This document shows, piece after piece, positions 3,864-62,818 of a stretch of DNA of 64,000 bases. How positions within the stretch are numbered: the stretch's first letter is position 1; each line of letters begins with the position of its first letter. The position numbers and the translations under genes are program-made. The notes below the pieces were generated by a model that did no database searches, was not told the origin of the DNA, and saw only the letters and a list, made by a program, of their open reading frames with translations. Origin of the DNA: Thermoplasmatota archaeon (GTDB lineage Archaea; Thermoplasmatota; Penumbrarchaeia; Penumbrarchaeales; Penumbrarchaeaceae); the NCBI GenBank assembly GCA_025457865.1, contig JALOTP010000016.1:516-64515 (forward strand), written 5' to 3'.

Positions 3864-3885
3864 AGTATCACGTTTATTAGCTCAA

Positions 3886-4377: not shown

Positions 4378-4510
4378 TTAATACCACCAACCCCCAATAT
4401 TATACTAATTATATAAAATCTATTATTAAATGAGTCATAAATAGGTCCAGAATGAATGGAAAAAAAAACATATTGATTTTCACTCCCTCTACTTATCCTC
4501 TTAGGTAGGA

Positions 4511-10924: not shown

Positions 10925-10935
10925 AGGTGGATGCT

Positions 10936-38644: not shown

Positions 38645-41600
38645 ATGTCAGGACGAGGTGTTAATCGCAAGCTGATGGATATTTCATTGATGATCATGTT
38701 ATTGATAATCTCATTGTTTGCAGCTGTTTCGGTCACTGGTGAAAACGGCTCGCTCGATCCGATCAGAGCATACACTGGTGTACATATAGACCTGGGATTG
38801 TATGATGATACAACCTCGGATTTCGAATTCATGTCGAGGTCCAATGCAAGGACCATTAGATTGAGTTCGAAGAGCTCTAAGGAAGAAAGTGTTTCGTTCG
38901 AGATAGGGAAGGTTTCACTGGAGATGAAGAGGGTTCAGGTCTCAGACGAAAATGGAAAAGGAACGGACAGGTCCACATTGTTCGGAAATGAAAAGACAAA
39001 AGATAGCAGGATCAACGACCCAGTAGGGTCGAACAAACTTGTTTTGAAAAATGCTGAGCATCTTAATGTCGAATATAGTACGACTATAACTGGGTTGAAG
39101 GAGACCGTGATTATTGAAGGACCTCCGATGAACCTGACCTCAGACCTTATTATCAAGACCAAGATAGGACTCAGTGGTGAAATAAACCCAGAAAAAGCAT
39201 CGAAGTATGAGTGGACCGAAGGTACCGGGCCGGATTTGGTATTGAAAGACGGGATGGGAACGGGTCTCAGGCTGCCAAATCCAATATTGTACTCGTCACC
39301 ATCGATTGTGATGACAGATTCAGGACCGGTCAAGATCAAAGAAACCGTCCATCGTCAAGAGCTGAAGTATAGATACTACTATGGCAAGGACCATCTCGAC
39401 TATGAAGTTGTAGTACCTTTCGAGTTGTTCGATCAGGACCTTGTCTATCCTTTGTATATCGATCCGTCCATAGTATCGTTCGAAGGGTATGCCGAGTATG
39501 AGGGTTATCCTAACGGGTCCGTAGCGTTCAGGGACGGAACGGATACAGCATGGTATCACAACGTTGATAGGACCGTTTATCTTGAGAGCGATGTTACCGT
39601 TGGAGCTTCGGAGACGCTAATATTCCGGAATGTGATAGTGAAGGCGAACCAGACCGGGATAGGTATAGAAGTAGAGGACGGTGGCTCATTCGGTGTCTAT
39701 GACGAAACGGTGATGACAGTTACTGATGTTTGTGATGGGTATTCCATACTGATGAAGGATGGGAGCTCATGCCAGATAATGAACAGTACTGTGGAAAAGG
39801 CAAAAACAGGTACGGGAGTGGATATAGGGTCATCTGATGTGACCGTGTACAACTCCACGTTCAGGTTCAATGGTGACCATGGACTGTTGGTGAACCAGTC
39901 CGTTCCAATAATTTTTGATTCCATGTTCTATGAAGAGGACATTGGTATCCGTATCCTACCGTTCTCCAATGCGATCTTGAGCGGGAACAGGATAAACAAT
40001 ACCGGGATCGGCATAGAACATGGTAGTTCGAACATCTTTGACGACCTATCTACCTCAGATAACATAGAGAAGATGATAGGGACGGAGCACGTGAACGGAC
40101 ATGTTGAGTACAAGATAGTCCCCGAGAACTATGCGTTGACATGTCCGTCAGTGACCGTGGATTCGACGTATTCATCGTTCGTTAAAGGGAATATGTACGA
40201 TGGTGTTTGGGACACGGCCTGGATGAGCGGTACGACCGAGCCACATTATGCGATATTCGATTTCAGCCCTGATCAAATAAATCTGACCTCGTTCAAGATC
40301 TATCATTATTCAGGTGCATATCGTTTGTATGATTATCAGGTCCAGACCTGGTCAGGTTCGGGTTGGGTGACCCAGTTCAATGTTGACAACAACGGTCAAA
40401 CGCTGACGACACATACGCTTGGGTCGATAGTGAGCTCTCAAAAGGTAAGGTTGTACATAACCGATTCAACACCTTCTTCGGACGCCCGTGCTCGGGTCCG
40501 TGAGTTCGAGATCTACGGTGATGATGATGGAGAGGATACACATTACATGTTGACCCGACCAATACCGGTTTACGGTCCAACGATATTTGGTTCATTGGTT
40601 CTGGACAAGGTCGAGCCTGGTGAAAGCAAGGTTTATGTTTCCATATTGGACGGTGAGACCAATACGACCATACCCGGGTTCGACGAACTTGACGGGACGA
40701 ACATCGACCTGAGGTGGATCAATACCACGGCTCACCCGACCATCAAGGTCAAGGCCCAGTTCGTCAGGGATGGCGATGATGAACCATACATAGACTCTTG
40801 GAAGCTGTATTTCAGCACATACCGTTCCGAATCTTGCGATCTTGATTCGTATTCGGACCTGAGCGACCATTCCGATATTGATCTGTTCGGTGGCAAGGCA
40901 CATCTGAGCGGGGAGGATTTGATCCTGGATGAACAGTGGGGTGAGGGCTGGGATATGTATTGGACCGTTCAGGAGCTGTACGATGGGGGCGATTGTTATC
41001 CCGTGATAGATAATTGGGAAGGTTCCGGCAACGACCTCTACATTGAGGGAAAGTGTTTGACCCCGTCGCCTGGTCATGATGGTGAGGTCATAGTCTCGAG
41101 ATATTTCGGCGAGGTCCATCCGAACTGCACATTGGACATCCATTTCACCGGTCAGATCGACAGCAGCATCTACAACTATGCGGATATGATGATAACGTTG
41201 TATGACCAGTCCAATTCGACCAAGCGTCAGATACGATGGACGACCCGTGACTATTCGTACAACGGTGGTTTGTCCGGTGATACTTACTACATCGTAGCCC
41301 AGGAAGAGGACCCGACGACACCATATGCGAACGAGGTCACGATTGATTCTACCATAGAAGACCTGTTCGTAGGATATTTCGGTGAAGAGTTCAACTTCAC
41401 TACCTATCGTTATCTGAAGATTGAGGTATTGTCGTTAGAGAACTATAACCAAAGACAGAATCCCAAGGTGTATATTGACCATGTCCGGTTATCCAATTTG
41501 ACGATGTTCGGGTCCGGAACGACAAATACATTCAACAGGGACCTGACGGAGACCTGGGCGTATCTTGTTTTCAACGGGGACCGGAACGATACGGGCGATA

Positions 41601-44600
41601 TCCGGTTATCCCTTTTAGACCCCAGTACTGGATCGGTTATTTCAGGTTTCGATGGTCTTACATCGTATACGACCGATATCTCATCACTGAACGACCAGGG
41701 AATTCTCTCGTTCCAAGTCCAGTTCGAACTGTTCTATGATATATCCGCACCCGATCTTGACTGGATCACGGTGTTCACCAATCCGTTGTTCGTAGGGAAC
41801 GAGATAGTGAACAATGGCATAGGGGTGATAACCAACAACTCCCTACCGGTAATACTGAACAATGTGATATCTGACAGCGGAACCATAGGCATCCATGTCT
41901 GGGAACCAAGGACGGATGCCATTGACGACAGTGAGATGTCCTTCATATTATCTGGAAATGTGATAGAAGACAACCCCTTAGGGATGTTCGTTGAGAATAC
42001 TTCCGTCAATATATCGTTGACAGATTTCATTGACAACGATGTGACGATTAGGGTCCACGGTTCGAGTTTTAAGATGAATGGTGGAACGGTCCAGGGCAAT
42101 GGTAATAGAATGTACATCAATAACAGCTTGGCTGAGTTCACCGAATCCTGGTTCAATGGTTCGGTATTTGACTTTGAGTCCAGGTATTCCCGGGTTGTGT
42201 TCAACGGTGTTATACGTTCGAACAATGACCCCGAACAGGTCGAACTTGTCCATTCGACCATGGTTTTCATCGACGTTGAAGATTACATGGACATTGACAG
42301 GACGCTTGACGGGTACTCGGTGCTATACTGTAACTGGTCCTATTCGTTCGATATCACGCCCAGATATGATGAGACTCCCGCAGGCGCAAGTGCGTTGATC
42401 TACAACAAGACAGGCGACCTTGTTTCAACTGTCGATATAACTGATGATTGTCAGTTGACGGGAACTATATCCGAACGGATAATCACCCAGTCGTATGAAT
42501 CCTATGAGACACCGCATAATTTCAAGATAGGGAGCAAGAACGATATTTATCTGTATATGGTCTCGCCTCAGTATCATTCTATTTACTATTGTTACGACAG
42601 TGATGCGGATTCCATAGCGGATATTGCCGAGAAGGATGAAGGCAAATATCTGTTCGAGAGCGAGGATCTGGTCTGCGAAGATAAAGTATATGAGCTCGGA
42701 GCGGTAGAACGTAGTACGGACGAGAATATTGTACCCATAGACATCCATATCCAGGAAGATGACCTGGAAGAATTGGAGTTTTCGTTCGCGGTTCGAGCGC
42801 GGAGCATCAATGTCTCAGCTGACCGGTCGTTCACCATCGACATGGATGATGGAACGATACCTATCGATGAGACGTTCGAGGTAACGCCGGATTGGAGGTG
42901 GTATCAGACCAGTTGGAGCCCAACCTACTTGGCACATATCACAGGAGAGATAAGGGACGATGACAGCATGTCTGTCGAGATAGACAGGTTTGTTCTGTTG
43001 AAAAAGAACGATGATACCGACGAGAACCCACCAGTGCTGGGTTCACCGTTGATATCCGATATGGACGATGACGGATTATTTGACGGGTATGAGCGGACCC
43101 AGAACGGAGTGTATATCGAGGCCGAACATCTTTCTGGAGTCACGGTCGTATCGAACACGACGGCCATCAACAGCAAGTTCGGTCAATCAACGATATTTTC
43201 TTTTAATGTGAACATAATGAATGCTGGTGAATACAAGCTCAATGTTCGGGCCAGGTCGGAGACGACTGAAACCATGTGGATCAACGATGGCAATAACGGT
43301 TCCGAAGAATTGACGGACCAGTTCCGGTGGTTTGAGATCGGGATCGGTTACGGTTCAACTGGTGAGAAGAATATCAAAATTTCATCAAACTCCACCGTTA
43401 TAGATGTTGACCGGATCACTTTGACCAAGGTTTCCGATGTGGAGATAACGAAGTTGTCCGGTAATGTTGTCAATGTGCCGCAGTGGGGATTGGCGACCAG
43501 GGCAGAGGTCTATTACACGAGCGAGTCGGAGGTCCGGTCGTTCGACAATCCTGACCGTGGAACGATAAGTTCGTTGGACGTTGACGGTAATCTGTCGGTC
43601 TACGCATCGCCCAACGGTTCCGACGATGACATAACCGGTTACAATCTCACTACCGGTAGGGAATACGATATCGAGGTCGGTTCGGACGTTCATTCATTTA
43701 AACCGTCAATAAGCAGAGGCGAGGTCGTCTATCATGACGATGAGGGGACATACGGTGGTAATATCTGGTATTGCGATCTCCGGTCCGGTCCAGACGCCTT
43801 GGACCCCATGATGATCTCAACGGAAGGAGGGATTTCATACAAGGGTTATGATGCCAAAATATCCGACGGGACGGTCGTCTGGCATTCCGATACCGGTGAT
43901 GAACTATATGTCAGGTTCATGGACAGTATGAGCTTCATCACCATTGAGGACGCTGGATACGATATAGGTAATTTCAGCATCTACGGTCGGACAGTGGCAT
44001 GGATATCCGTGGACGAAAATGAGTACAAGGTCAGGATGGCTGATGTCGGGATATTGGCCGATGTCCAGGAAAGAGATTCCGAGTATACAGGTCTGACTCC
44101 GCATATCCAGACGATCGCAGAGACCACGAACACTATCTTCCGTTCAGTGGACATTTACGGTACAAGCATCGTGTATATGGAAAGTAACGTGGGCTTGTCA
44201 AAGTTAATGCTCTATGACCGTATGAGCAATACATCGAACTGCATCTACGCGTATACTTCGAATATCACCTACACTAAACCTGTCCAGATATATGGCTCGT
44301 ATGTTTGCTGGCAGGAGACTACCGCTAATTATTACATCAAGGTCATGGAGATAGGCAGCTCTGTCCAGACCTGGACCCAACCGTCGACCATTGCGACATG
44401 TTCATTATATTCTGGTCAGGTTTATTTCACTTATTCCTCGTCAAACCAGATAAAAGGTTATGTCCAGGATTATTCCTTCATTGTCGACGAGGCCTGGTCA
44501 AACACTCATCTCCCGTTCTTCACTTCGGAAAACGTGGCCATTTCCGTGCATTCAACGGACGATCTCAGTTCTGAACTGAACGAGGCTCTTCTGGCAAGTC

Positions 44601-50600: not shown

Positions 50601-51745
50601 ACTTGCCTGAAGATCGAGATTCTGGATTTTTCGAAGATTATGATTATTACAGCGACTACGATCACGATGGTTTAACAACTTTAACCGAAAAGTTCTGGCT
50701 GAACAATACTATATTGTTTAACAATCGACCATTGAACTGCGGGACGTTAGACTCGTCTTTATGGGATAAGGACGGTGATAATGTGAGCGACGGTTGGGAG
50801 ATAAAATACGGATTCGATCCGTGCGATAACTCAAGCCCGAACAAGAACGATGACGGGGACCAGGACGGGATCAGTGATTACAATGAATATTGTCTTGAAG
50901 ATACGCCTGGATTTTTCGTTGATAGAAATGTGACCATAAAGTACCATAACATGTCAAAATGGGGAGCTCAACCGGACAGGCAGGATATCTTTGTTGAAGT
51001 AGATTGGATGAAAAAACATATTAAAACATATATTATGATGCCTCAAGGAAATGGTGAATATAAGAGAATAGATGTTGAATATGATATTGAATATAAAATG
51101 TCGGAAGAAGCAAAGGATAAGGTTATACTTGCCTTTTTTAAGGCATGTAAGTATGGGAATCATATAACATTGCACATCGACGACGGATGCATGGGTGGGG
51201 GGGAAACAATCCCATATCAAGAAATAAATTATATAGATATAATACCTGGAGTAAATAATGATATATATGATATAAAGTGGGGTAATGATTGGAATATTAC
51301 ATATAAAGAAATTGGAGAAATTGAAGATATTTGCACGTTAAATATGGGTGATAATAATAATTTTAATTATGAACGTTTTAGAGTATTTTATTATTGTGTA
51401 TTTGATAAATGTTTAGAAAGCAATGATAATACTATTCAAAATATCATTTTTAAAACGCATCTTGGACAAAGTGATGGATATGATACATTTTGTATATCGA
51501 AAGGTCATCCAATACTAAATGATGGATATTATGATGGATTAAATGTAGCAGGTGTTTTTATGCATGAATTAGGTCATTGTTTAAGTTTGAATAGAGATAG
51601 TGAAGGTGTTTATGGGTTTGACGTCTTAGGTCCAAAAACTTGTATGAATTATAGAGATATTTATGACACCATTGATTATTCAGAAAATGAATGGAGTATG
51701 CTTGATTTATTATCGAAAGCTAATCCATTAATAAGGAGATATTGA
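38645..51745 (+). CDS. Giant secreted or anchored multidomain protein (4366 aa): parallel beta-helix repeats, a discoidin (F5/8 type C)-like domain, CBM-like modules, a beta-propeller-like region, long runs of TSP3 calcium-binding repeats and a C-terminal HExxH metzincin-like module
   Basis: The N-terminal hydrophobic segment is ISLMIMLLIISLFAAVSVTG. PbH1-like repeats include NVIVKANQTGIGIEVEDGG... and NNGIGVITNNSLPVILNNVISDSG. A discoidin-like segment lies at about 40170-40520 (YDGVWDTAWMSG...VREFEIYG). CBM-like modules include YIEAEHLSG...YKLNVRARS...VDRITLTK. Dozens of DxDxDGxxDxxE repeats are present. DIFVEVDWM is at 50984-51010 and HELGHCLSLNRD at 51563-51598. Confidence 0.9.
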   Translation: MSGRGVNRKLMDISLMIMLLIISLFAAVSVTGENGSLDPIRAYTGVHIDLGLYDDTTSDFEFMSRSNARTIRLSSKSSKEESVSFEIGKVSLEMKRVQVSDENGKGTDRSTLFGNEKTKDSRINDPVGSNKLVLKNAEHLNVEYSTTITGLKETVIIEGPPMNLTSDLIIKTKIGLSGEINPEKASKYEWTEGTGPDLVLKDGMGTGLRLPNPILYSSPSIVMTDSGPVKIKETVHRQELKYRYYYGKDHLDYEVVVPFELFDQDLVYPLYIDPSIVSFEGYAEYEGYPNGSVAFRDGTDTAWYHNVDRTVYLESDVTVGASETLIFRNVIVKANQTGIGIEVEDGGSFGVYDETVMTVTDVCDGYSILMKDGSSCQIMNSTVEKAKTGTGVDIGSSDVTVYNSTFRFNGDHGLLVNQSVPIIFDSMFYEEDIGIRILPFSNAILSGNRINNTGIGIEHGSSNIFDDLSTSDNIEKMIGTEHVNGHVEYKIVPENYALTCPSVTVDSTYSSFVKGNMYDGVWDTAWMSGTTEPHYAIFDFSPDQINLTSFKIYHYSGAYRLYDYQVQTWSGSGWVTQFNVDNNGQTLTTHTLGSIVSSQKVRLYITDSTPSSDARARVREFEIYGDDDGEDTHYMLTRPIPVYGPTIFGSLVLDKVEPGESKVYVSILDGETNTTIPGFDELDGTNIDLRWINTTAHPTIKVKAQFVRDGDDEPYIDSWKLYFSTYRSESCDLDSYSDLSDHSDIDLFGGKAHLSGEDLILDEQWGEGWDMYWTVQELYDGGDCYPVIDNWEGSGNDLYIEGKCLTPSPGHDGEVIVSRYFGEVHPNCTLDIHFTGQIDSSIYNYADMMITLYDQSNSTKRQIRWTTRDYSYNGGLSGDTYYIVAQEEDPTTPYANEVTIDSTIEDLFVGYFGEEFNFTTYRYLKIEVLSLENYNQRQNPKVYIDHVRLSNLTMFGSGTTNTFNRDLTETWAYLVFNGDRNDTGDIRLSLLDPSTGSVISGFDGLTSYTTDISSLNDQGILSFQVQFELFYDISAPDLDWITVFTNPLFVGNEIVNNGIGVITNNSLPVILNNVISDSGTIGIHVWEPRTDAIDDSEMSFILSGNVIEDNPLGMFVENTSVNISLTDFIDNDVTIRVHGSSFKMNGGTVQGNGNRMYINNSLAEFTESWFNGSVFDFESRYSRVVFNGVIRSNNDPEQVELVHSTMVFIDVEDYMDIDRTLDGYSVLYCNWSYSFDITPRYDETPAGASALIYNKTGDLVSTVDITDDCQLTGTISERIITQSYESYETPHNFKIGSKNDIYLYMVSPQYHSIYYCYDSDADSIADIAEKDEGKYLFESEDLVCEDKVYELGAVERSTDENIVPIDIHIQEDDLEELEFSFAVRARSINVSADRSFTIDMDDGTIPIDETFEVTPDWRWYQTSWSPTYLAHITGEIRDDDSMSVEIDRFVLLKKNDDTDENPPVLGSPLISDMDDDGLFDGYERTQNGVYIEAEHLSGVTVVSNTTAINSKFGQSTIFSFNVNIMNAGEYKLNVRARSETTETMWINDGNNGSEELTDQFRWFEIGIGYGSTGEKNIKISSNSTVIDVDRITLTKVSDVEITKLSGNVVNVPQWGLATRAEVYYTSESEVRSFDNPDRGTISSLDVDGNLSVYASPNGSDDDITGYNLTTGREYDIEVGSDVHSFKPSISRGEVVYHDDEGTYGGNIWYCDLRSGPDALDPMMISTEGGISYKGYDAKISDGTVVWHSDTGDELYVRFMDSMSFITIEDAGYDIGNFSIYGRTVAWISVDENEYKVRMADVGILADVQERDSEYTGLTPHIQTIAETTNTIFRSVDIYGTSIVYMESNVGLSKLMLYDRMSNTSNCIYAYTSNITYTKPVQIYGSYVCWQETTANYYIKVMEIGSSVQTWTQPSTIATCSLYSGQVYFTYSSSNQIKGYVQDYSFIVDEAWSNTHLPFFTSENVAISVHSTDDLSSELNEALLASQANIESISTEERRTDIVIGLDHDYGTSLTMTGVRISMDSLTDPFSSDVDMDGLTDGEELLGWYNQTIIEVEDTISFKEWIEPDCGKEHSVFTGLAAMFYRYSPMFYVDGVDLMTGDYRYNKDEGDNEFWTNTSSGMAFELPDLGSGKYKVMTVQNERIKSAYSDLDDAEIMNKRPAMEVRGSESDTFGTGNSDLYEELYKLNDTELEYIGYVLDEILVFDYVGSSGENMSVLSETRDYQVLWCYIGRLVDSPHEYYDEESENDLMFLGFQMDYEAEINLGGPSSYRLEIRFDLDLLPDNLDPLLKGTLGEASLVPDGFPVERFNFMRMVNLDSIIIAGHGLNPISEDTDLDDLDDGVEVYLDTFPLTEDGDKDGISDYDEVITYETRPNKRDTDFDGIRDPVELGILSGSLIRTNSVGSWFERKVRNGDYFDLANVSNVDADEGATDTEPTVIDTDRDGLPDGWVDGWGYYGGYFSGLGTSGSMYSTSNWRGGLGYDCLVQVYEGEDIDLDGEVDDELTDWDFDGLTFEFAGSGTAECDPNTPDSDEDHIPDGYEILYGIQEPFLGSSGEFILSPTEGDSDHDLDPLGRDVLSGITPEEPSHFQTVTSTNTRYAQEIVPLTPPDDIKKLAWVGVLVDSEDEVQCIEIWSGNNSGGGEPRDKLKTIYGYEAKEEGEDLTNYIFKVPQGIFFNGLRVGDVFYLVVPYTGTNIDWTNRSDGAGKTCYYSGSGWTELTSIDLCYTLYCHDLVGEGLTNLEEYIIGTDPKDRNSDVGYLGYNDDDLSDFEETVGYFGNGGSGLGEDEVLARTNVENGTLSFDRLLSGSYLSSHKIYYNENPASFDVNEYDYYDNGTEFNCSSLEIVNVFKLRDGSDVIKVTIDEDDYLIVWDTLCLDEEERTVEGTNTIIHCEYIRFISDGSVSATYSIDLSFIGQDIFFSEPCSYDSDWDGILDGEEIGWNDNSDGDYTLRELSQLGTDLVYNVRDRDSDNDGIDDGDEIDWNLTNDGQGLDETDMRENMVDPDSDGDGIWDGWEREYYSDQDSDGLENGIDPDSDNDGLCDGWGDGYIWDSYSGSFVQIYSSGKVYNPSGQVDNMFDLWEGEDKDRDGILDGNETDHLRPDTDCDGLWDGWDVVIDDVVHRGELYETGNTAFDSLMQISGFDYNRVYKPNTPSWEQSGSTNSSDPDTDTDGISDGEEVNGWDLRLEIRYVDPSTNSITRTVMDSIVSDPTLADRDSDGLSDWEEYSNGSLPYETDSDKDGLGDYKECSAWFTSPSDFDTDKDNLPDGWIDGWRRVNATVWKSDRTKNSQREVWEGEDIDGDGVLDALESNPRYRDTDNDHIIDGHEYFHMNITSVMDPWSQVPGTARYYWSYDADGTSNARDNDSDGDGLLDGLEDWNLDGKLEASLSGSTYPNYVMAKESNPYDTDSDDDGLDDGEDVIVGGILYNRADPDGDGVISSMDRDSDGDGELDDEDPNPLYYGDQDNDGDGLSYQMEQVLGLSDNDADCDNDGIRDGDEVKNGTDPSDEDTDDDGLTDGYELVTSRTDPLKYDTDNDGISDKVEYINMSSGLDPFDPDVDDDGLSDGNPFEGVRDYSLNVKQKAQWTNSDSNFETILGEPFTYNFNDEDSDGDGLKDGYEIGIMDKDGNLIGDMNKSVIDGDTDNDRVKDSVETWLNLDPLNYDTDGDYVPDGWIDGWTRNKDGTWHLDKSLRDGVKDLHEGESICYDGTVTFMVQREINANSGTKTDTEGDTLPDWLDRWMGANPDSTDTDGDEVTDNLDLEPLINSNIHFSFFLKSFFVMDDTSLDFPNDKPDPLFTCDLQSRGTFTDSWKDSDHGGAEIAERKVEKGYCNDPCDQYGSDYLYKISRGFVVQNLPSDHYQLLFAIRMYDKDSCSADDQVDISPCSSYTLEVFYDVVTGMWAVWDDMSVIRETSYNTYLNDPDNLKEGVYLYKNQNDSYTVIRETEKGTPVAGIGDGIGYVTGFEPGSKDLKEAGGIQFEIAPMYLPEDRDSGFFEDYDYYSDYDHDGLTTLTEKFWLNNTILFNNRPLNCGTLDSSLWDKDGDNVSDGWEIKYGFDPCDNSSPNKNDDGDQDGISDYNEYCLEDTPGFFVDRNVTIKYHNMSKWGAQPDRQDIFVEVDWMKKHIKTYIMMPQGNGEYKRIDVEYDIEYKMSEEAKDKVILAFFKACKYGNHITLHIDDGCMGGGETIPYQEINYIDIIPGVNNDIYDIKWGNDWNITYKEIGEIEDICTLNMGDNNNFNYERFRVFYYCVFDKCLESNDNTIQNIIFKTHLGQSDGYDTFCISKGHPILNDGYYDGLNVAGVFMHELGHCLSLNRDSEGVYGFDVLGPKTCMNYRDIYDTIDYSENEWSMLDLLSKANPLIRRY

Positions 51746-51746
51746 A

Positions 51747-52313
51747 ATGAAGATATTCATTAAAATATATCCAGTATTAGTTACAATTATTTGTTCTTTG
51801 ACAATATTATCTGGATGTATTATAAATAATGATGAAGACTATTTTAAATCAATCAGTGTTATATATATGACCAATGAAATAACATTAAATATTAGTGATT
51901 TAAATTATCCAAATAATGTAAAACTTTTTACTATAAATTCAAAATTTAATAATGGAGAATATAATATGAAACTTGATTTTTATAATAATAATAATTCACT
52001 CAATATTGTAAGAGTAAGCGAAGTTATGAATATTCGCTATATAAAACCATTTAAGCAATACTATTTCAAATTTGAAATTGATAATTACTATTATGATATG
52101 GAAAAATATGATATTATAGGACAAAATAATTCATTTGATGGTTATTTAACTTTTGATAAAGAAAATAATATTCATTGGAATATTGAGAATAAATATACTG
52201 GATATTATAATTTTTCATTAAAAGATAACAATATACTAATAATAAAATTATTTCCAAACTTTTATAATTATAATTTGTTTTTTTCATTCTATTTATCTAG
52301 GACTTTTATATGA
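51747..52313 (+). CDS. Small lipoprotein-like protein (188 aa), translationally coupled to the giant gene; candidate cognate partner (inhibitor or immunity protein)
   Basis: The ATG lies 1 nt after the giant gene's TGA, with AAGGAG at 51733-51738. The signal plus lipobox-like motif is MKIFIKIYPVLVTIICSLTILSGC. It is extremely AT-rich and N/Y/K-rich. I recognised no family. Confidence 0.65.
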   Translation: MKIFIKIYPVLVTIICSLTILSGCIINNDEDYFKSISVIYMTNEITLNISDLNYPNNVKLFTINSKFNNGEYNMKLDFYNNNNSLNIVRVSEVMNIRYIKPFKQYYFKFEIDNYYYDMEKYDIIGQNNSFDGYLTFDKENNIHWNIENKYTGYYNFSLKDNNILIIKLFPNFYNYNLFFSFYLSRTFI

Positions 52314-52381
52314 TATGATTAAAAACTCTTGACTTGAAATAGTGACAAATATCTCCCCCACTTCACAACTAGATTTAGTGT

Positions 52382-52539
52382 GAGTTGATCCATTGGGATT
52401 TCGACGGATTGATGTTCGAGTATTCAGCCTGACCTCGTCACATAAAGTATAGAACCCGAACTCGCCCGATTCGGATTAAGATGACATGCCCGACGGACAC
52501 GATATACTGAATGTTATCTGTGCCTTTATTGGATAGCGG
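52382..52539 (+). pseudogene. Decayed leader of cassette B, homologous to giant-gene nt ~46148-46310 but carrying stops and a frame change
   Basis: It translates as ELIHWDFDGLMFEYSA*, whereas A reads ELTDWDFDGLTFEFAGSG. After a frame change it reads NPNSPDSD*DDMPDGHDILNVICAFIG*RLSS, whereas A reads DPNTPDSDEDHIPDGYEILYGIQEPFLG. Confidence 0.7.
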
Positions 52540-55500
52540 TTGTCATCGAATTCTGGACCCCACCATAGGGATCTCGATAACGATCTAGATCCGTATGGTC
52601 GAGACATCGTGATAGGAATATTACCGGACGAGAACAATTATTTCGAGACCGTTACCAGCACGAATGTTCGGTTTGCCCAGGAGATCATACCACCTAACCA
52701 TGAGAAAGACCTGAGGAAGGTAGCTTGGATAGGAGTATTTTCAGACAGCGAGGATGAGATAAGATGCATAGAGATCTGGAGCGGGTATGGGGGTTTGAGT
52801 GGTGAGCTCCGGGACAAGTTGAAGACGATCTACAGTTATGAGTTGAAGGAGGAAGGAGAGGAACTGACCAATTACATCTTCAAGGTGCCCCAGGGAATAT
52901 TCTACAACGGTTTATCGGAGAACGATGTGTTCTATCTTGTCGTGCCTTATACCGGTAAGAACGTTGATTGGTGCAGCATCAATATAGATTCTGGAAGAAC
53001 GCTTTACTATTCCGGTACAACCTGGAGCATTGTATCATCCAACATAGACCTATGCTATGTTCTCTACAGTCATCATCTAGAGGGAGATAGCTTGACAAAT
53101 CTTGAGGAGTACATTGTCTGTACTGATCCGAAGGACAGGAACAGCGATGTGGGTTATCTAGGTTACAATGACGATGTTCTGACCGATGGTCAGGAGGTAA
53201 GGTCATATTTTGGCGGTGGTGGAGAAAGCACCGGAGAGGGAGAGGTTCTGGCCAGAATTACCGTGGAGGAAGGGGCGATAAACATCGATAGATTATTGAG
53301 CGGAGCCTATCTCAGTAGTCACAAGATATTCTACAATGAGGACCCGTTGAGCGATGATTACGTGGAATATAGTTATATTGACAACGGAACCGAGTATGAG
53401 TACACGACATGGGAATGCGTGAATGTGTTCAAGCTCAGGGACGGGAGCGAAGTCACACAGGTAACGGAAGGGAATGACGAATATCTGGTGGTATGGGACA
53501 CACCGTATCTTGATCAGGAGGAAGTAACGGTAGAGGACCAAACAACGACGGTACACTGTGAGTTCGTCCGGTTCATAAGGGTTCAGGAGATAAGTGCGAC
53601 CTATACGATAGACCTCTCGTTCAGGTGCCAGGATATCTATTTCTCAGAACCTTGTTCGTATGATTCGGACTGGGACGGGATACTCGACGGAGCAGAGATA
53701 GCTTGGAATGGGAACTCGGACGGGAGTTATACTGGAAGGGAACTGACCGAGTTGGGAACCGACTCAGTGTACAATGTCCGGGACCGTGATTCGGACAACG
53801 ACGAAATAGATGACGGGGACGAGATAGAGTGGAACGAGACCAATTATGGCCAAGGCCTAGACGAGCTTGACAGCAGGGCGAATATGATAGACCCCGACAG
53901 TGACGGAGACAGTGTCTGGGACGGGTGGGAGAGGGAACCGTTATCCGATTACGATCATGATGGTTTCGCGAACATGGAAGACCCTGATTCCGATAGTGAT
54001 GGTCTTTGCGATGGTTGGGTGAACGATTACGTATGGGACCCTCAGGCCGAGTCAGGATTGGGTAAATTTGTACATGTGACCGAGTCCACAACGTTCAGTT
54101 TCAGTACATCCAATTCAAGCTTTGACTGGTGGGAAGGCGAGGATGCGGATCGGGGCGGAATGAGGGAATTGACAGAGACCGACCCGTTGGATGTTGATAC
54201 GGACAATGACCAATTCTGGGACGGTTTCGATGTCAAGGACATAAATGGAGATTACACGAGAGGCGAGATGTATATTCGTGGAGGGTACATATCCGGGTAT
54301 GATTATCAAAGGACGTACTTTACAGAACAGTCTTCAAGTACAGACCCTCTCGATCCTGATTCGGATGGAGATGGGATAGAGGACGGGATGGAGTATCATG
54401 CATGGGGAAATTACAAATATATGGAGATAAAAGTACCTACCGGTCAGGGAATCGTCATGGCCGAGTATTACGATGTCCGGTCCGACCCTTCAATAAACGA
54501 CACTGATAACGACGGGTTAAAAGACGATGAGGAGTACGAAGCAGGAACGTTGCCCAATGCAACAGACAGCGACAGAGACGGTATCCTAGACGATAAGGAA
54601 GTAATAACCGGGACAAATCCTAAGGATTGCGATACGGACGGTGACGGAATACCTGATGGTTTTGTTGACGGTTGGTGGTTCGATACGTATGAGAAGAAAT
54701 GGTTCCTGAACGTATCGAGGGTAGATACAGAAGAGAACTACTGGGAAGGGGAGGATCGAAACTGCAACGGTATCTCTCAGAGCTCTCTGAATGAAACGGA
54801 TCCGACCAGTTCCGATTCGGATGACGATGGGATCGAAGATCCGTTTGAATATTTCTTCAACCTCCAATACGAATGGACGGATCCCGAAACGGATTACGAT
54901 GTGGACGGAGTCGGTATGATCAATCCTCTTGACGAAGATTCCGATGGCGATGGATTATTGGACGGAGAGGAGGACTACGACCATGATGGGGAACTAGATG
55001 CGGTTGTAGGTACAAGTTCAGACAATCCCTATTTTTCATCTGCACAGGAATGCAATCCATATTGTTCAGATTCTGATGGGGACGGTGTAGAAGATGGTGA
55101 TGACAGCCCGTATGAGACCATGGATTTGATTTGGCGTGGAGACAGTGACCAGGATGGGTTGATAAATGCAATGGATAGCAATTCCGATGGTGATGACTGG
55201 TCCGATGATGTCGATCAAAGACCGTTAGTGTATGGAGCTGAAGGAGACACCGATGGGGATCAGGATCCCGACAATGACGATGACGGTATTCTGGATTGTA
55301 ATGAGGACACTAATGGGAACGGATATTACGATGAGGGTGATGATACATCTAACTTGAACAGTAACGATACAGATTTAGATGGATTATTGGACATGGTAGA
55401 GTTCGTGTTAGGAACGAATTTGACGAATGTTGACACAGACGGGGACGGATTGACGGATTCAGAGGAGAATACGATTGGGACGGACCCGAAGGTACCTGAT

Positions 55501-57486
55501 AGTGACCATGATGGAGTTAGGGACGGGACCGAAGTGATAGATTGGAAGACTAACCCGTTGAAGAAAGACAGTGATGGAGACGGTCTAGAGGACAATGACA
55601 CATATGAGCGGAACATGGACACCGATGGAGATGGGATCAAAAATGCATTGGACATAGATTCGGACAACGACGGATTAACGGATGGTAACGAAACGAAATT
55701 GCATCAGACGGACCCAGTTAACAACGATACAGATTCGGACGGATTACTGGATGGACAGGAGTTATTATTCTACTCGAACCCAAGAATGAACGATACAGAT
55801 TATGATTTGCTTCTCGACAACGATGAATATCTGAGCGGAACAGATCCGTCCAAGAACGATACGGACGGTGATAAGACCTTAGATAGATGGGATGTTGAAC
55901 CGACAGTGAGCGATCTTCGTTTAACTTTAAACGTATATGAAATGAATGCGTTGGAAGAAGTGGATGTATGGCCATGGCAAGAGCCAGAATTCAGGTTAAC
56001 AGTCAAGTTCGAGCAATTGGTCCCTTGGACCTGGGAAAAGCTGAATAATGATGGTGACAGTACTTGGTATGTGGATAATTACAATATACAGGAAGATAAA
56101 GCATTCATAACGGACAAAATAAGTCCCAAAGCGTTATGGATAAAGGTATCTATCGTATTGGATGAGATAGATAGTTTGAAGAATGACCGGTGCGACATCA
56201 GTCCACAAACGGACCGGACATCTGTTACATTGTATTATGATCTGAGGACATCGCTTTGGAACGACCTTGGAGCGTTCAAGCATGAAGAAGATTGTCAAGT
56301 ACCTCCTGGAACAGAGGAATTTGTTCAGTATGAAGATTTAGAGGAATATAAGTTCCAAGAGGGTTCAGCCAGATATGAGGGGGAGTATGGGATATTCGAG
56401 ATGGATGACGATATAGGGTACATTACGGGTAAGTATGATAGGGCGAATAAGAACAATGATGATTGCGATATATCGTTCGGGATACATCTGAACGATAGAG
56501 ATAGGGACAATATCACGGATTATGCAGAAAGGATGTATTGGGGAACGGATAGAAGTGATTGGGATAGCGATGGTGATAAAATGTCCGACGGTTGGGAGAT
56601 AGTGCATGTTCGAAGTGCTGTAAATAATTCAAATGGTGGAAAGGATAGAACAACCACTAACGATCCTGATTCTGATGGAATTTCGGATCTGAACGAGTAT
56701 GAGCTGGAAAGATTTGGGGCACATCCGAGAAGGAAAGATATCTTTGTGGAGGTTGATTGGATGGTAGAAGAATACTGGGTAAGCAGCGTTAATGAAGGTA
56801 ATCCAGGTGGTGATAATTCCTATTTGTATACAAAACCTTATAAAATGAAATCTCGAGCACAATTCCTTGTGATCAAACCGTTTGCGAAGCATAACATTGG
56901 ATTGCACATAGATGACGGATGCATGGGTGGGGGAAAACCTGTTGATTATGAAAAATATTTAGTTAGCGGCCAAGTTGATCCTAAACATCCTGATTACCTA
57001 GATAGATTGGATATTAAATGGGGTATAGGTTGGGATAGTGGTGCAGATGGAAAACCAGGCACAGGTGACTCCGGTGAAAGTAATGGAATTCTTGATGATT
57101 CTGAAAAACCGCATTTAGCTATGAATAATTTTGATATAAATCGTTGGCATGTTTTTCATTATGTAGTTTTTTGTGATAAAATATGGTTTGATTGGGGTTC
57201 AGGTTTTAAGGATGATTGGCGGGGATTAGGAGAAACCCCTGGTGATGAGTTTATGATAAGCACAAATCAGGAAAAATACACTTTTATGCATGAACTTGGA
57301 CATAATCTGAATTTGCATCATCCGATTAATAAAAATGGTTCGTACTACTATTCTGATTATAATACTAAGAGTGAAGCAAAGAAGACGGTAATGTATGCTC
57401 CCTCATCCAGCGCAACCGGTGGTTACACCTATGATAAATTATGGAAATATATTGACCTTACGAAATTTACTACTAATCTGGACTAA
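52540..57486 (+). CDS. 5'-truncated paralog (cassette B, 1648 aa) of the C-terminal third of the giant protein, with an intact HExxHxxxxxH module. Probably an orphan or silent cassette rather than an independent gene.
   Basis: It is colinear with residues ~2555-4366 of the giant protein: DLDP.GRD, IEIWSG, TNLEEYI, FSEPCSYDSDWDGILDG, the TSP3 run, DIFVEVDWM at 56737-56763 and HELGHNLNLHH at 57289-57321. The only start is a TTG. It has no signal peptide, and the upstream homology is interrupted by stops. Confidence 0.75.
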   Translation: MSSNSGPHHRDLDNDLDPYGRDIVIGILPDENNYFETVTSTNVRFAQEIIPPNHEKDLRKVAWIGVFSDSEDEIRCIEIWSGYGGLSGELRDKLKTIYSYELKEEGEELTNYIFKVPQGIFYNGLSENDVFYLVVPYTGKNVDWCSINIDSGRTLYYSGTTWSIVSSNIDLCYVLYSHHLEGDSLTNLEEYIVCTDPKDRNSDVGYLGYNDDVLTDGQEVRSYFGGGGESTGEGEVLARITVEEGAINIDRLLSGAYLSSHKIFYNEDPLSDDYVEYSYIDNGTEYEYTTWECVNVFKLRDGSEVTQVTEGNDEYLVVWDTPYLDQEEVTVEDQTTTVHCEFVRFIRVQEISATYTIDLSFRCQDIYFSEPCSYDSDWDGILDGAEIAWNGNSDGSYTGRELTELGTDSVYNVRDRDSDNDEIDDGDEIEWNETNYGQGLDELDSRANMIDPDSDGDSVWDGWEREPLSDYDHDGFANMEDPDSDSDGLCDGWVNDYVWDPQAESGLGKFVHVTESTTFSFSTSNSSFDWWEGEDADRGGMRELTETDPLDVDTDNDQFWDGFDVKDINGDYTRGEMYIRGGYISGYDYQRTYFTEQSSSTDPLDPDSDGDGIEDGMEYHAWGNYKYMEIKVPTGQGIVMAEYYDVRSDPSINDTDNDGLKDDEEYEAGTLPNATDSDRDGILDDKEVITGTNPKDCDTDGDGIPDGFVDGWWFDTYEKKWFLNVSRVDTEENYWEGEDRNCNGISQSSLNETDPTSSDSDDDGIEDPFEYFFNLQYEWTDPETDYDVDGVGMINPLDEDSDGDGLLDGEEDYDHDGELDAVVGTSSDNPYFSSAQECNPYCSDSDGDGVEDGDDSPYETMDLIWRGDSDQDGLINAMDSNSDGDDWSDDVDQRPLVYGAEGDTDGDQDPDNDDDGILDCNEDTNGNGYYDEGDDTSNLNSNDTDLDGLLDMVEFVLGTNLTNVDTDGDGLTDSEENTIGTDPKVPDSDHDGVRDGTEVIDWKTNPLKKDSDGDGLEDNDTYERNMDTDGDGIKNALDIDSDNDGLTDGNETKLHQTDPVNNDTDSDGLLDGQELLFYSNPRMNDTDYDLLLDNDEYLSGTDPSKNDTDGDKTLDRWDVEPTVSDLRLTLNVYEMNALEEVDVWPWQEPEFRLTVKFEQLVPWTWEKLNNDGDSTWYVDNYNIQEDKAFITDKISPKALWIKVSIVLDEIDSLKNDRCDISPQTDRTSVTLYYDLRTSLWNDLGAFKHEEDCQVPPGTEEFVQYEDLEEYKFQEGSARYEGEYGIFEMDDDIGYITGKYDRANKNNDDCDISFGIHLNDRDRDNITDYAERMYWGTDRSDWDSDGDKMSDGWEIVHVRSAVNNSNGGKDRTTTNDPDSDGISDLNEYELERFGAHPRRKDIFVEVDWMVEEYWVSSVNEGNPGGDNSYLYTKPYKMKSRAQFLVIKPFAKHNIGLHIDDGCMGGGKPVDYEKYLVSGQVDPKHPDYLDRLDIKWGIGWDSGADGKPGTGDSGESNGILDDSEKPHLAMNNFDINRWHVFHYVVFCDKIWFDWGSGFKDDWRGLGETPGDEFMISTNQEKYTFMHELGHNLNLHHPINKNGSYYYSDYNTKSEAKKTVMYAPSSSATGGYTYDKLWKYIDLTKFTTNLD

Positions 57487-57495
57487 GGTGATTCT

Positions 57496-57879
57496 ATGAA
57501 AAAACAATTGGTTATTTTTTTCGCAATTATTTGTATAGTTACATTCATAATAGGTTGTCTAAATGAAAAAGATAACAATACAAATCCCAATGAAGAAACT
57601 ACTGAAACCTATTTCAATTTTTATTCATCTTCATCAACAATTGATGATAATGTTTCTATTGTAATAATAACGAAAAACATCACTGTTTTTAATGATACAT
57701 TAAAACTTAATAAAGGAGAGAAGATTTATCAGGAAATTGCTAGTGGGGAATTATATATTATAAAAATATTTTGGAAAGGAAACCTCACAGAAAAAGAATT
57801 TTTACCAACAGGTTATAATTCAATATTTTTAATAATTAACAATTATGAAATAACTTTTTATGAAATAAATATTGATTAA
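57496..57879 (+). CDS. Small lipoprotein-like protein (127 aa) coupled to cassette B; unrelated in sequence to 51747..52313
   Basis: The ATG lies 9 nt after the TAA of cassette B, with AAGGTGA just upstream. The signal plus lipobox-like motif is MKKQLVIFFAIICIVTFIIGC. One hand-counted line gave ~23% GC. Confidence 0.65.
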   Translation: MKKQLVIFFAIICIVTFIIGCLNEKDNNTNPNEETTETYFNFYSSSSTIDDNVSIVIITKNITVFNDTLKLNKGEKIYQEIASGELYIIKIFWKGNLTEKEFLPTGYNSIFLIINNYEITFYEINID

Positions 57880-57975
57880 CCCACTGTGAAATCCGGGAGC
57901 AGTATGAATAGTTATGTCATTCTCCAAGGCTTAACAGAATGTACTGTGTACAAAAAAATGGGAGTGTTCATTGTG

Positions 57976-58203
57976 TTCACTTTCGAGGGGTTCGGTGAGT
58001 GCGATCCCAATTCCCCCGATTCGGATGATATCCCGGACGGGTATGAGATACTGTATGGTATCAAGGAACCGTTCCTTGATAGCGATGGTAACCTAATTAT
58101 AGACCCGACCACAGAAGATCCCGATAACGATCTTGATCCGAATGGTCGAGACATCGTGACAGGGATATTACCGGACGAGAACAATTATTTCGAGACCGTG
58201 ACC
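57976..58203 (+). pseudogene. Cassette C: a 76-codon stub of the same junction region (inside track ORF 57886..58224)
   Basis: It reads FTFEGFGECDPNSPDSDDIPDGYEILYGIKEPFLDSDGNLIIDPTTEDPDNDLDPNGRDIVTGILPDENNYFETVT. The last ~60 nt are nearly identical to cassette B at 52597-52660. Homology ends at 58203, and a stop follows at 58222-58224. Confidence 0.7.
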
Positions 58204-58247
58204 TGTTTCATTATGCATTTTTGAACCGGCGTCCTCAATAGTCCTCA

Positions 58248-61200
58248 TCACTCCTCGAAGTCCATGGGGTCGTACTCGTAACCGCACTCCGAGCAGTCCC
58301 TGGCCCCTCCGGGTACGACGTTGCTGCATTCTGGGCAGCTCCAGTCCTTGCCGAAGCCATCCTCTACGGTCCTGTCCTCTTTCCCTTTCTTTCTATAGAG
58401 TACCCCGAACACCAGAGCAGCGATGACAAGTACGATCAATAGGGCTATCAGCATGTAGAGGACGAAATCGGGTATCCTGCTCTCCCCATCGCTCTTGATC
58501 GGTTTGACCACCGAGATGGTAAGGGTCGTGGAGCGCGAGTCCGTCCCGTCAGAGACCGTCAGGGTGACTATATAGATGCCCTCCTCGTAGTAGATATGGT
58601 CCACCTTCTTGTCCACTGCTTCCTTCTGGACACCGTCCCGGTCATTGAAATCCCAGGAATAGGTCAATGTATCCCCATCAGGGTCGCTCGATAGGGAGGC
58701 ATCGAAGATGACAGGTTCCCCCGTCAGCACCGTAGCCGAGGGACCGTTGATGCTCGGGACGGGGGGGGAGTTCTGAACGTTAAGGACGAACACCTTCGTG
58801 GAATTGGTGAAGTTACCGTCCGAGGCCTCGAAGTAGTATAGATGCCTTCCCGGGGCCAATTTGATCCCCTGTGCTTTGAAGAATGTGAACCTGTTCACGA
58901 CGGGGGACACTTCGCCGCTGGTAAGGTCGTACGTTGTGGAGTTGTCCATGACCAGTTTAATGAACACAGGTGCCTCGTTGTCAAGGTCCCTGTACTCCAC
59001 CCGTACCATCCAGCCCTCAGGGTCATCGAGCTTGCTCCTGTACTCCTTGGTCTCTGCATGCTTCAGCTGCGGGATGGAATTGTCAAGGATGCCTATGGCA
59101 TACAGTCCGGTCCTCAGGTCCGAGAAATTGCCGTGTACCTTCTGGGAAGAGGCGTTCACACCGGAATCGGCGGCCATAACCCATTTGGATGCGCCGTCCA
59201 CAAGCCTGTAGAGCCGGACCTTCGATGTCTCCATCCTCACAGGGAACTCCTTGTCGGAGAACCCGATGGTAACATTCGCCCATTCGAACCTGTAGGCGGC
59301 GTAGCTGGGCCAGGGCTGGAACTCAAGGCGGCAGATGAATATGGAACCCTGCGCAGAAGGGGGATCGTCGGGAACGGATATATCGACGAGACCCCACCCT
59401 GACACCTCGGCTATCCCGTATGACATATGCACGTTCACGCCGTAGAAGTAATCCGTGAAATCCGGGTAGGTGACCCGTTTGAGCACGGTCACGTTGACCT
59501 GTGCCTCCCCGTACGCCCTCATCGTGTCATATACCCTCAGCACCAATGTCACCTTGCCCAGGGTATCGAGGGTGATGGTCGCGGTGGGTGAGGGTCCCTC
59601 AACTAGCGGCTGCAGGCTTCCCATGGCCGACCAGGAATAGATGAGGTCATCATCGTCAGGGTCGCTGGAGAGCGAGGCATTCAGGAATATGGGCTCGCCC
59701 GGGAACACGAGCAAGTTCAGACCAGGGGATGAGATGACAGCGGTAGGGCGGTCGTTGGAAGCCCCGATGGATAAGACCTCCCCCTGCCCCATGGAGATGT
59801 ACATGTTCCCTCCGGATAGGACCAGCTCACCCCTCGGTGCATCCTCGAGGGAAAGGGTCCAGGTCGGGACAGGGTTGCCTAGGTCGTTGGGGGAGAACGC
59901 CCGGACCGTCCTGGTGCCAGAACCGGTCACGATGTAGAACGAATCACCGCCTGATACCATCCTGCCCGTGCACGGTTCCAGGAGGGCGATCCTGCCGGAA
60001 ACGGTCCCGTTGTTGGGATGGATGAAGACCATGGATTCGGCTGTGGCGGTCGCTATCCTACCAGTTCCCATCGAGACCGCCGGAGGGGTGACCAATGGAA
60101 GGAGAAGGTCCACCGTCCAGATGAGGTCCCTGCTGGTCACGTTGTCCTTCACACCCTCGTCCTTGTCGCTGCTGTCTACGATCCCGTCACCGTTGTCATC
60201 AGGGGTGGCATCCAGCATGAACAGGACGCCTTGCGCCGATAGCAACAACCTGTCCTGCTGGAGGGATATGGAGCGTATAGGGTCTGTACCTATGAGCGTG
60301 GCCAGATCGGTGATGGTCCTGATCTCTGAGGTCGAAGGGTCAATACTAAAGAGCTGGGTCCCGTCGGCCAGGTAAAGCGACGCCGGGCCTGCGCACATGG
60401 GGGCGGCCACATCGAACGGCCCCAGCGTCCATGCGACCGCGCCAGTGTCATCGTCCAGGGCGCGCAGGATACCGTCCCTTGTCATGATCACCAGGTTTCC
60501 TGCGGTGATGAGGGGTGGTTGGGATAGAGGCCCGGAGAGGGCGGTCCTCCAGACGATGTCCGCATCCAGGGCGCCCGTTCCGGTCTCGGAAAGATATGGA
60601 CCGTCGTTCTTTCCGTCCCAGAACCCGGCCCAGTCGAAGGCCCATATCGCATTATCGCTTCCAAGGGAGAATACCCTGTTCGGTCCGTTCATCGTCTGGA
60701 AGCTCTCGACCAGGGCAACGGGCCTCCCTATCATGTCCACCGAGGGGTTGTCATAGGTCCATAATGGGCCAGGTACCCCAGTGGGTCCCGCTGTGGTATT
60801 GTAGGCGTGGAGCTCACCTCCGGGGCCTGTCAGGTAGAGCGTCGGTCCGGTCGCGGTGATGGTCCCGTTGCCCGAGAACGATCCGTACCACATAGGCTCC
60901 GCAGGCCCGGACCAGACCCCACCGAAATCGAATTTCCAGTAGGTCCTGTTGCTCTCCAGCCCCCTCAGGGCGCCTCCGGACCTATCGGCACCGCTCCCGG
61001 AGGAGGTCCAGTAACCGGACAGGACCTCCAGCAACATCACGTCGATGGTCCTGAAATTGTTGAACGGGTTGCGGTCCTTGGGAGAGCTGTCCTTGATCAT
61101 CGTAACGATGTAATCGAACCCCCTTGAAGCGGTCCAGTTGCACTTGACAAGGGTATTCCCGAACGGTTCGATCCTGATGTCCTCGAAGAGATCGAGCACC

Positions 61201-62702: not shown

Positions 62703-62818
62703 ACTAGGTACCCCTTGATACAGACCTATAGCTGGCCTACCCGAACCTCTTTATTTAAACATTTTGCAGAGGGCGGAGCACATATGGAGGTCCGTAGGCA
62801 GATACTTAGCGGCGGACC

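Follow-up and report, generated by a model that had tools for sequence, protein, structure and literature searches.

Classical polymorphic toxins carry unrelated toxin folds. In bacteria their repertoire includes zincin toxin domains, and toxins that act at the cell surface are paired with secreted or lipoprotein immunity proteins (PMC3482391). We use the word orphan as defined by Poole et al. 2011 (PMC3150448) for cdiA-CT/cdiI and rhs-CT/rhsI modules, where CT stands for the C-terminal part. Among archaea, Methanosarcina RHS loci with cassettes were recognized as polymorphic toxin systems by Zhang et al. 2012 (PMC3482391), and wider predictions are attributed to Makarova et al. 2019 in a later paper (PMC8416519). 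That paper proposed an analogy to polymorphic toxin systems for the VARTIG surface proteins, and describes the predicted archaeal systems as so far without experimental tests (PMC8416519). Here we describe a cassette locus in a 64,000-nucleotide (nt) stretch of DNA, called the window below, from a 66,449-bp contig of a "Candidatus Thermoplasmatota archaeon" metagenome-assembled genome (MAG). The locus consists of a giant gene (A) with a small gene abutting it (s1), an orphan (B) related to the 3' part of A with its own small gene (s2), and a further fragment (C).

We regard this as probably a polymorphic-effector locus akin to bacterial Rhs and CdiA, assembled from other components and residing on a genomic island of 19.8 kb. 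It resembles the orphan cdiA-CT/cdiI and rhs-CT/rhsI loci (PMC3150448) in its large exported stalk, its variable C terminus, and the small gene abutting the stop codon. As in those loci, modules of a 5'-truncated C-terminal part plus a small gene lie downstream, lack initiation and export signals, and keep a variable length of the conserved upstream part (PMC3150448). An abrupt drop in identity after a short motif, AT-rich tips, and chimeras between strains are further points of likeness (PMC3150448). Pfam and NCBIfam gave no match to the CdiA/CdiB parts (TPS, FHA, VENN), and no cdiB-like gene is present among the island open reading frames (ORFs). No RHS/YD match and no PxxxxDPxGL motif was found, the demarcation motifs here being DIFVEVDWM and HIDDGCMGGG. 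Maf parts, a type VI secretion system (T6SS), and the DUF4157 signature were not detected at the locus.

Gene A and its truncated relatives

The predicted product of A is an exported giant protein with a calcium-binding TSP3 stalk and a C-terminal metzincin-like zinc protease domain. A hydrophobic N terminus (signal or anchor) is followed by a beta-helix, an F5/8-type-C-like domain, the TSP3 repeat stalk, and the metzincin-like domain. A thus has the general form of polymorphic toxins, a large exported multidomain protein with a secretion signal and a repeat stalk. A full-length homologue of 4,391 amino acids (aa), 42.5% identical to A, is encoded at another locus (L007). The features of the window are collected in Table 1.

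Table 1. Features of the island and its flanks, in window coordinates
Feature	Position	Strand	Remarks
rps17e, left flank	38184..38381	-	65-aa ORF; counterpart has Ribosomal_S17e Pfam match in L093, L094
19.8-kb island	38433..58247	+	A promoter region, A, s1, B, s2, C; absent from sister species
Shine-Dalgarno-like GGAGGTGA	38632..38639	+	5 nt before the ATG of A; read from the sequence
Gene A, giant surface protein	38645..51745	+	4,366 aa; ATG ORF
Conserved module of A	46147..47800	+	Common to the start of B and (up to 46420) C; BLASTN 67.2% over 1,678 columns
Conserved head of A protease domain	50692..51202	+	DIFVEVDWM through HIDDGCMGGG; 84-86% nt identity to L008 orphans
Variable tip of A	51203..51742	+	~180 aa; HELGH active-site helix and Met-turn-like CMNY
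s1, lipoprotein-like partner of A tip	51747..52313	+	188 aa; lipobox-like LSGC; starts 1 nt after A stop; 18% GC
Decayed head of orphan B	52381..52539	+	Matches A 46147-46305; TGA, frame change, TAA, TAG
Orphan B, intact ORF	52540..57486	+	1,648 codons; TTG start; one BLASTP segment, colinear, covers A residues 2560-4316
s2, lipoprotein-like partner of B tip	57496..57879	+	127 aa; IIGC; 22% GC
Fragment C, in-frame junction-module remnant	57976..58203	+	Matches A 46175-46420; at island right edge
PQQ beta-propeller/PKD surface protein gene, right flank	58248..62702	-	

Database searches placed the protease domain only in part: Pfam gave a weak Reprolysin_5 match in B only, NCBIfam returned only TSP3-repeat matches to CglD and MtsD, PADLOC returned none, and a PDB sequence search with the C terminus of A gave chance matches only. 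Across 43 aligned relatives, HEXXH is invariant and is followed downstream by a conserved Met (CMNY or VMY). We modeled the last 346 aa of A with AlphaFold2 (AF2; pLDDT 77, pTM 0.81), and the best PDB matches of the model were archaemetzincin and ulilysin (E ~1e-3, TM score 0.55-0.61 normalized to target). The HEXXH helix, the Met-turn, and the modeled fold are all those of a metzincin, and the domain is predicted to be a protease. In the model, the conserved head comprises the first strands and a helix up to the HIDDG strand, and the other strands fall in the variable tip together with the active-site helix and the C-terminal subdomain; the substrate and inhibitor cleft would be expected in these parts of the tip. 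The family as a whole conserves the head, which runs through DIFVEVDWM and HIDDGCMGGG; the tip and the abutting lipoprotein gene are hypervariable.

Homology of B to A starts at 52381, equivalent to A nt 46147. B has neither a signal peptide nor a Shine-Dalgarno sequence and keeps HELGH. Its decayed head is 67.5% identical to A overall; the first 41 nt (52381-52421 versus 46147-46187) are 90% identical and the rest ~65%. Four disabling lesions fall within the 53 codons of the head and none in the next 1,648 codons, which suggests that B is still under selection, whether as a store or for the expression of s2; given how far it has diverged from A, its direct reuse here is doubtful. The Joint Genome Institute (JGI) annotation gives B a 1,625-aa product starting at 52609, and an exact look-up of our B product found no match because gene callers had chosen another start. 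A scan for sigma-70 promoters and terminators around B was uninformative, as the consensus is bacterial and the host archaeal.

BLASTN aligned A and B only over 46147-47800 and 52381-54039, the first 1.66 kb (67.2% identity), and in two short blocks. At the protein level, A and B are 41.7% identical overall, with 66-74% over the initial ~500 aa, which covers the conserved module, 44-54% in the TSP3 region, 20-24% in the middle domain, and 30-50% in the protease domain. The proportion of differing synonymous sites (pS) is ~0.8, that is, saturated, with a nonsynonymous proportion (pN) of 0.21-0.25 in the conserved module, and the longest exact run common to A and B is 43 nt. With synonymous sites saturated and no longer run than this, A and B diverged anciently, and the substitution pattern marks them as ancient relatives under purifying selection and not as a recent duplication. 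Direct recombination between them in this genome now is unlikely on the same measures.

The homology of C begins within ~30 nt of the A coordinate at which B starts, a common left boundary. Identity of the C head is 81% with A and 72% with B; the final 87 nt of C match B at 93%, and C stops at the high-GC flank. When tandem duplication of a whole unit was tested, the sequences just 5' of the B and C heads were not similar (score below the shuffle mean), which lends that idea no support.

Much of this layout had been described in a first-pass annotation made from the window alone, and we recovered its account of A (an ATG at 38645, a Shine-Dalgarno sequence, and a hydrophobic N terminus), of B as colinear with A, with a lesion-bearing head and a frame that reopens at a TTG without a signal peptide, of C as a third copy of the same junction that is close to B at its end and breaks off at the flank, and of a small gene after both A and B. 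Its estimate of 70-80% nucleotide identity between A and B was too high, given the figures above.

The small genes s1 (MUC62_04285) and s2 (MUC62_04295) each encode a hydrophobic N terminus ending in a lipobox-like Gly-Cys, and no relationship between the two could be detected. An AF2 model of s1 (pLDDT 35) was unusable for fold comparison.

Module exchange at related loci

C-terminal cassettes truncated at the 5' end and accompanied by their own small gene are found here (B with s2, and C) and at five other loci. At L004 (MAG M17C-73-04), a main copy cut by the contig end is followed by a 177-aa lipoprotein gene, an orphan of ~1,200 aa whose start corresponds to A position ~3078, then a small gene of 174 aa and a fragment that matches A 2751-2972, with a GC-rich flank next. 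L007 (MAG BLK5-1.bin.203) has the 4,391-aa giant gene with its lipoprotein gene, and an orphan tip 3.8 kb downstream with a 196-aa ORF directly after it. Six protease modules stand in a row at L010 (JGI 3300005573), each with a gene for a membrane-anchored protein of ~200 aa. L008, which belongs to the MAG that holds the window (P0004 = MUC62_00485), is a 3-kb low-GC islet with two pairs of orphan and lipoprotein genes, and L013 has two pairs of orphan and partner beside housekeeping genes.

Two of these loci carry further peculiarities. In the L004 main copy, positions 1475-1477 read as an in-frame TAA (TAT TAA) where its own orphan, near-identical around this site, reads TGT GAA. Either the expressed gene has truly acquired a nonsense mutation or the ~6x coverage has left an error. 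The first L008 orphan (10001-11185) forms an in-frame fusion with the N-terminal ~45 residues of a VapB/CopG-like antitoxin gene and thereby gains an ATG start; JGI labels the fusion a CopG family antitoxin.

We counted partner genes and export signals in 80 metagenomic loci retrieved with a profile of the C-terminal domain together with the loci described above. A gene for a lipoprotein or transmembrane protein abuts the stop codon of 7 of 9 giant genes and 19 of 22 orphan-like ORFs (26/31 together), as against 4 of 39 stand-alone homologues of 400-720 aa (Fisher p = 2.6e-10). An N-terminal hydrophobic segment was found in 1 of the 22 orphan-like ORFs versus 37 of 45 stand-alone proteins. The protease family has more than 485 matches, and every match with a named source is from Thermoplasmatota, where the ordinary members, exported and without a partner gene, are widespread. 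At L036, L037 (616-3815), and L067 (7887-10807), two full-length stand-alone homologues (~480-545 aa) without partners stand in tandem; these are ordinary paralogy, distinct from the orphan arrays. A word-based homologue search with the junction module gave only two matches; it was swamped by low-complexity D-rich words and has little bearing on distribution. A first metagenome scan with that module gave none. A scan of viral contigs with the C-terminal profile likewise gave no match.

Exchange of C termini over a conserved upstream part is recorded at two of the loci. At L010, five modules have heads that agree at 84-100% across ~200 nt, up to the block that encodes HIDRGEMGGG, and tips that are 30-50% identical. 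At L004, the orphan head matches the main gene at 57-60 of every 60 positions over ~300 nt after a sharp left edge, and identity then declines gradually to ~65%. Over A positions 3055-4065, the L004 main copy resembles B (55-75%) more than A (14-49%), and over its last ~230 residues it resembles A (51-64%) more than B (18-36%). By this comparison it is a mosaic of a B-like body, an A-like tip, and an s1-like lipoprotein.

The tip of A is 59% identical to the tip of the L004 main gene, 40% to that of L010 module 2, and ~31% to the tip of B. Among 74 tips, L004 main and L010 module 2 are its best matches (211 and 112 bits; the next scores 65). The partner genes follow the same pattern. The L004 partner is homologous to s1 (34% identity, E 9e-23) and not to s2. 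The s1 family has six representatives among 1.84 billion proteins, and a hidden Markov model (HMM) of these six, run against the partners of all fetched loci, matched only s1, the L004 partner, and the partner of L010 module 2, so that the two best matches to the A tip are exactly the loci whose partner is of the s1 family. A profile-profile comparison that had only two sequences in the s1 profile gave no significant match to the L010 module 2 partner; the relationship is detectable only with the six-member HMM. Co-inheritance of an A-type tip with an s1-type partner is shown by these alignments in three genomes. Together, the L004 mosaic and the linkage of tip and partner indicate that the unit moving between genomes is the lipoprotein gene together with the ~180-aa tip that follows HIDDGCMGGG. 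Linkage of tip and partner is demonstrated only for the A/s1 type and hinted at in one other pair. A second partner family, with an "LP(I/V)P" motif after the membrane anchor, accounts for most L010 partners (614-8700) and one at L008 (11176-11757), and is distinct from s1 and s2.

The conserved head of the A protease domain is likely a recombination tract, by analogy with the VENN region of cdiA. Over 50692-51201, the first L008 orphan is 86% and the second 84% identical to A, with exact runs of 50, 45, and 41 nt; B is 94% identical to this head in one 33-nt block. Judged by these tracts, the likely best exchange partners for A in this genome are the two L008 orphans and not B.

The analogy with rhs, cdiA, and maf orphan cassettes, drawn in formal terms in the first-pass annotation, is borne out by arrays of main gene and orphans in relatives, near-identical heads with abruptly divergent tips, the L004 chimera, and the single export signal among 22 orphan-like ORFs. 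The unit that it took to be exchangeable, ~1,700-1,850 aa plus the small gene, has to be revised, as what is seen to move is the last ~180 aa and the lipoprotein gene. Its proposal of cassette swapping by recombination is supported for the kind of array but not for A and B as current partners, given their saturated synonymous sites and longest run of 43 nt.

The island and its flanks

The first-pass annotation had suggested comparing the locus between rps17e and the PQQ/PKD gene in related genomes, and the comparison revealed an empty site. In L093 (GCA_041304665.1) and L094 (JGI 3300009168), two assemblies of a sister species that are 98.9% identical to each other, rps17e adjoins the PQQ/PKD gene across a gap of only 23 nt, and both match the window at 88-90% identity on either side, as far as 38432 on the left and again from 58248 on the right. 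Thus, window 38433-58247 is a single 19.8-kb indel. Composition favors insertion over loss as its origin: flanking genes have 57-58% GC and a third-position GC content (GC3) of 0.66-0.75 (flanks overall, 56-60% GC), versus 35-50% GC for the island and a GC3 of 0.13-0.61 for its genes. Within A, GC3 is 0.51-0.61 in the body and 0.13 in the last 500 nt (27% GC). The A tip, s1, and s2 (51245-52313 and 57040-57879) have 18-27% GC and GC3 of 0.13-0.15, compared with ~58% GC for the genome and well below the rest of the island; the B tip has 36% GC and GC3 of 0.27.

At its right edge, the island ends exactly with C. A search of the window gave no tRNA gene, a search of the island for direct repeats listed no att-like pair spanning both ends, and the giant-gene loci of L004 and L007 show no synteny to the window. 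Since the whole array is absent from the sister species, it need not have been built in place.

Two further assemblies cover the array. Window 50700-64000 is recovered at 99.95-99.99% identity in JGI 3300037461 contig Ga0392394_0001851, and 50942-52647 at 100% in a Logan contig of SRR12684589. Thus, the s1/B junction and the B/s2/C/flank junctions are not tied to one assembler. All three assemblies are short-read and possibly from one sample. The contig ends at 50700 (JGI) and 52647 (Logan) coincide with the edges of repeats: the tract common to A and an L008 orphan begins at 50700, and 52647 falls within the near-identical tract of B and C, and such repeats fragment assemblies.

The flanking PQQ gene is MCU0798875.1 in NCBI. 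A second low-GC stretch (33-46% versus ~58%) occupies window 1-10000, where positions 4511-8662 on the minus strand encode a surface protein of 1,383 aa whose domains include DUF7948, SBBP beta-propeller, and PKD, with small unannotated ORFs alongside. It may be another acquired surface-protein island.

Proposed function, alternatives, and relation to known systems

Under the polymorphic-effector reading that we favor, recombination in the conserved head or stalk would load new modules of tip and lipoprotein onto the expressed gene, and the older 3' parts would be pushed downstream as orphans, B being older and C oldest. C may have been cut at the island end when the island was transferred or trimmed. 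The protease would attack the envelope of non-kin neighboring cells, and the lipoprotein, as a cognate surface-anchored inhibitor, would shield the producer. We infer the toxin/immunity function and the silence of B; the downstream lipoprotein is a putative immunity protein of the adjacent tip, with which linkage is what was observed. A wider proposal, which we put forward tentatively, is that Thermoplasmatota have a contact-dependent antagonism or kin-discrimination system of their own, in which a mobile island of ~20 kb carries a calcium-stiffened stalk and draws cassettes of tip and inhibitor from orphan stores. Such a system would be an envelope-acting counterpart of contact-dependent inhibition (CDI) and Rhs made from unrelated parts.

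Several observations weigh against our reading. A and B share no identical tract longer than 43 nt and the head of B is decayed, so B may never be reused here. The PDB matches of the C-terminal model of A are modest, and all tips belong to one HEXXH metzincin-like family instead of many unrelated toxin folds. Across 27 pairs, no significant correlation links the similarity of tips to that of partners (Mantel r = 0.115, p = 0.09). An ATG start is present in several L010 orphans, which could therefore be translated alone. Presence or absence of the island is known from one sister lineage, sampled twice, and the family members are known here only from sequences and a model.

The alternative that survives best, though we consider it unlikely, is a surface-variation locus comparable to pilE/pilS, in which cassettes diversify an exposed adhesin or protease for virus escape or for specificity toward substrates or partners, and the lipoprotein is a co-varying anchor, receptor, or maturation partner. 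The recombination signatures fit it equally well, all tips are versions of one protease domain, and the homologues that stand alone, which are common throughout Thermoplasmatota, are exported proteases of an ordinary kind. It accounts less well for the hypervariable, co-inherited partner that abuts the tips and is nearly confined to the polymorphic forms, a hallmark of effector and inhibitor, and immunity stockpiling better fits the orphan pairs that lie far from any main gene (L008 and L013).

B and C could also be functionless genomic debris, the decaying remnants of an old tandem duplication or partial deletion in an acquired island. The destroyed head of B, the reduction of C to a stub at the island edge, an A/B divergence too great for ready recombination, and the in-frame TAA in the L004 main copy itself would all agree with decay. 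We nevertheless think it improbable, because the 1,648 codons of B contain no stop beside four lesions in the adjoining 53, the catalytic motifs are intact in all orphans, and the architecture is repeated at at least five other loci, with homogenized heads.

That B is instead an independent gene, read from TTG 52540 or GTG 52609 and either not a Sec substrate or exported by an unknown route, within an array that is simply a paralogous family, seems very improbable. Its long intact ORF was called as a gene by JGI, leaderless transcripts are possible in archaea, and some L010 orphans have ATG starts. Against this, B lacks a Shine-Dalgarno sequence and a signal peptide although all of its domains are of extracellular type (calcium-binding TSP3 repeats and a secreted-type metzincin), the homologous sequence 5' of B has decayed and was not swapped for a new N terminus, and an export signal is present in just one of the 22 orphan-like ORFs across loci.

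Finally, an assembly artefact in which the 52.4-58.2 kb repeat consists of mis-joined strain variants of the 3' end of A is hardly credible: the window does stem from a metagenome bin, and short-read contig ends do coincide with the repeat edges at 50700 and 52647, but ~33% of aligned A/B bases differ with synonymous sites saturated, too far for strain variants, the s1/B-head and B/s2/C/flank junctions are present in two other assemblies, and comparable arrays occur in unrelated assemblies.

Archaeal antagonism and self/non-self recognition are largely uncharacterized. In this locus and its relatives, the uncultured Thermoplasmatota of sediments provide a system that is concrete and bounded, with an island that is present or absent, an assayable effector in the predicted protease, and a candidate lipoprotein inhibitor. 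The cognate types would be A/s1, B/s2, and the "LPIP" partner family. Protease genes beside a small exported inhibitor that protects the producer envelope are familiar from the serralysin-type metzincins (AprA/AprI, Inh). Pairs of the AprA/AprI type are not polymorphic and have no orphan cassettes.

Compared with cdiA and rhs loci, the host here is archaeal, the switch point lies inside the catalytic domain, and there is one metzincin-like tip family. Module exchange with a breakpoint inside a catalytic domain is unusual among cassette systems. The partner is a predicted extracytoplasmic lipoprotein, and orphan B is unusually long at 1,648 codons. The proposed order of events resembles the model of sequential displacement for the Vibrio cholerae T6SS (Kirchberger et al. 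2017, PMC5361080). In that model, a conserved upstream sequence is where new effector/immunity modules enter by recombination, and the older modules are pushed downstream as arrays of orphans. There, the delivery machine and the effectors are different, and displacement at our locus is suggested only by the order and decay of B and C.

Among archaea, the predicted polymorphic toxin systems are likewise contact-dependent effector loci with cassettes of toxin and immunity genes. Those are described as having RHS stalks, a PVC secretory system, DUF4157, and toxin domains derived from bacteria, none of which was detected here. VARTIG of Thermococcales (Makarova et al. 2021, PMC8416519) also joins a large surface protein with a recombinationally hypervariable C-terminal domain to variable downstream genes. 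The varying part there is an Ig domain, for which we found no match in A or B; here it is half of a protease domain plus a lipoprotein, with clear 5'-truncated orphans, and the hosts are Thermoplasmatota. The first-pass annotation knew of no described archaeal system with this architecture. Our literature searches found no description of this family, in agreement with that statement, yet as archaeal cassette or polymorphic loci the Methanosarcina RHS loci (PMC3482391) and VARTIG (PMC8416519) precede it. The family is distinct from both and shares none of their components, and it shows the logic of orphan cassettes to have arisen also beyond the Rhs, CdiA, and Maf machineries of bacteria.

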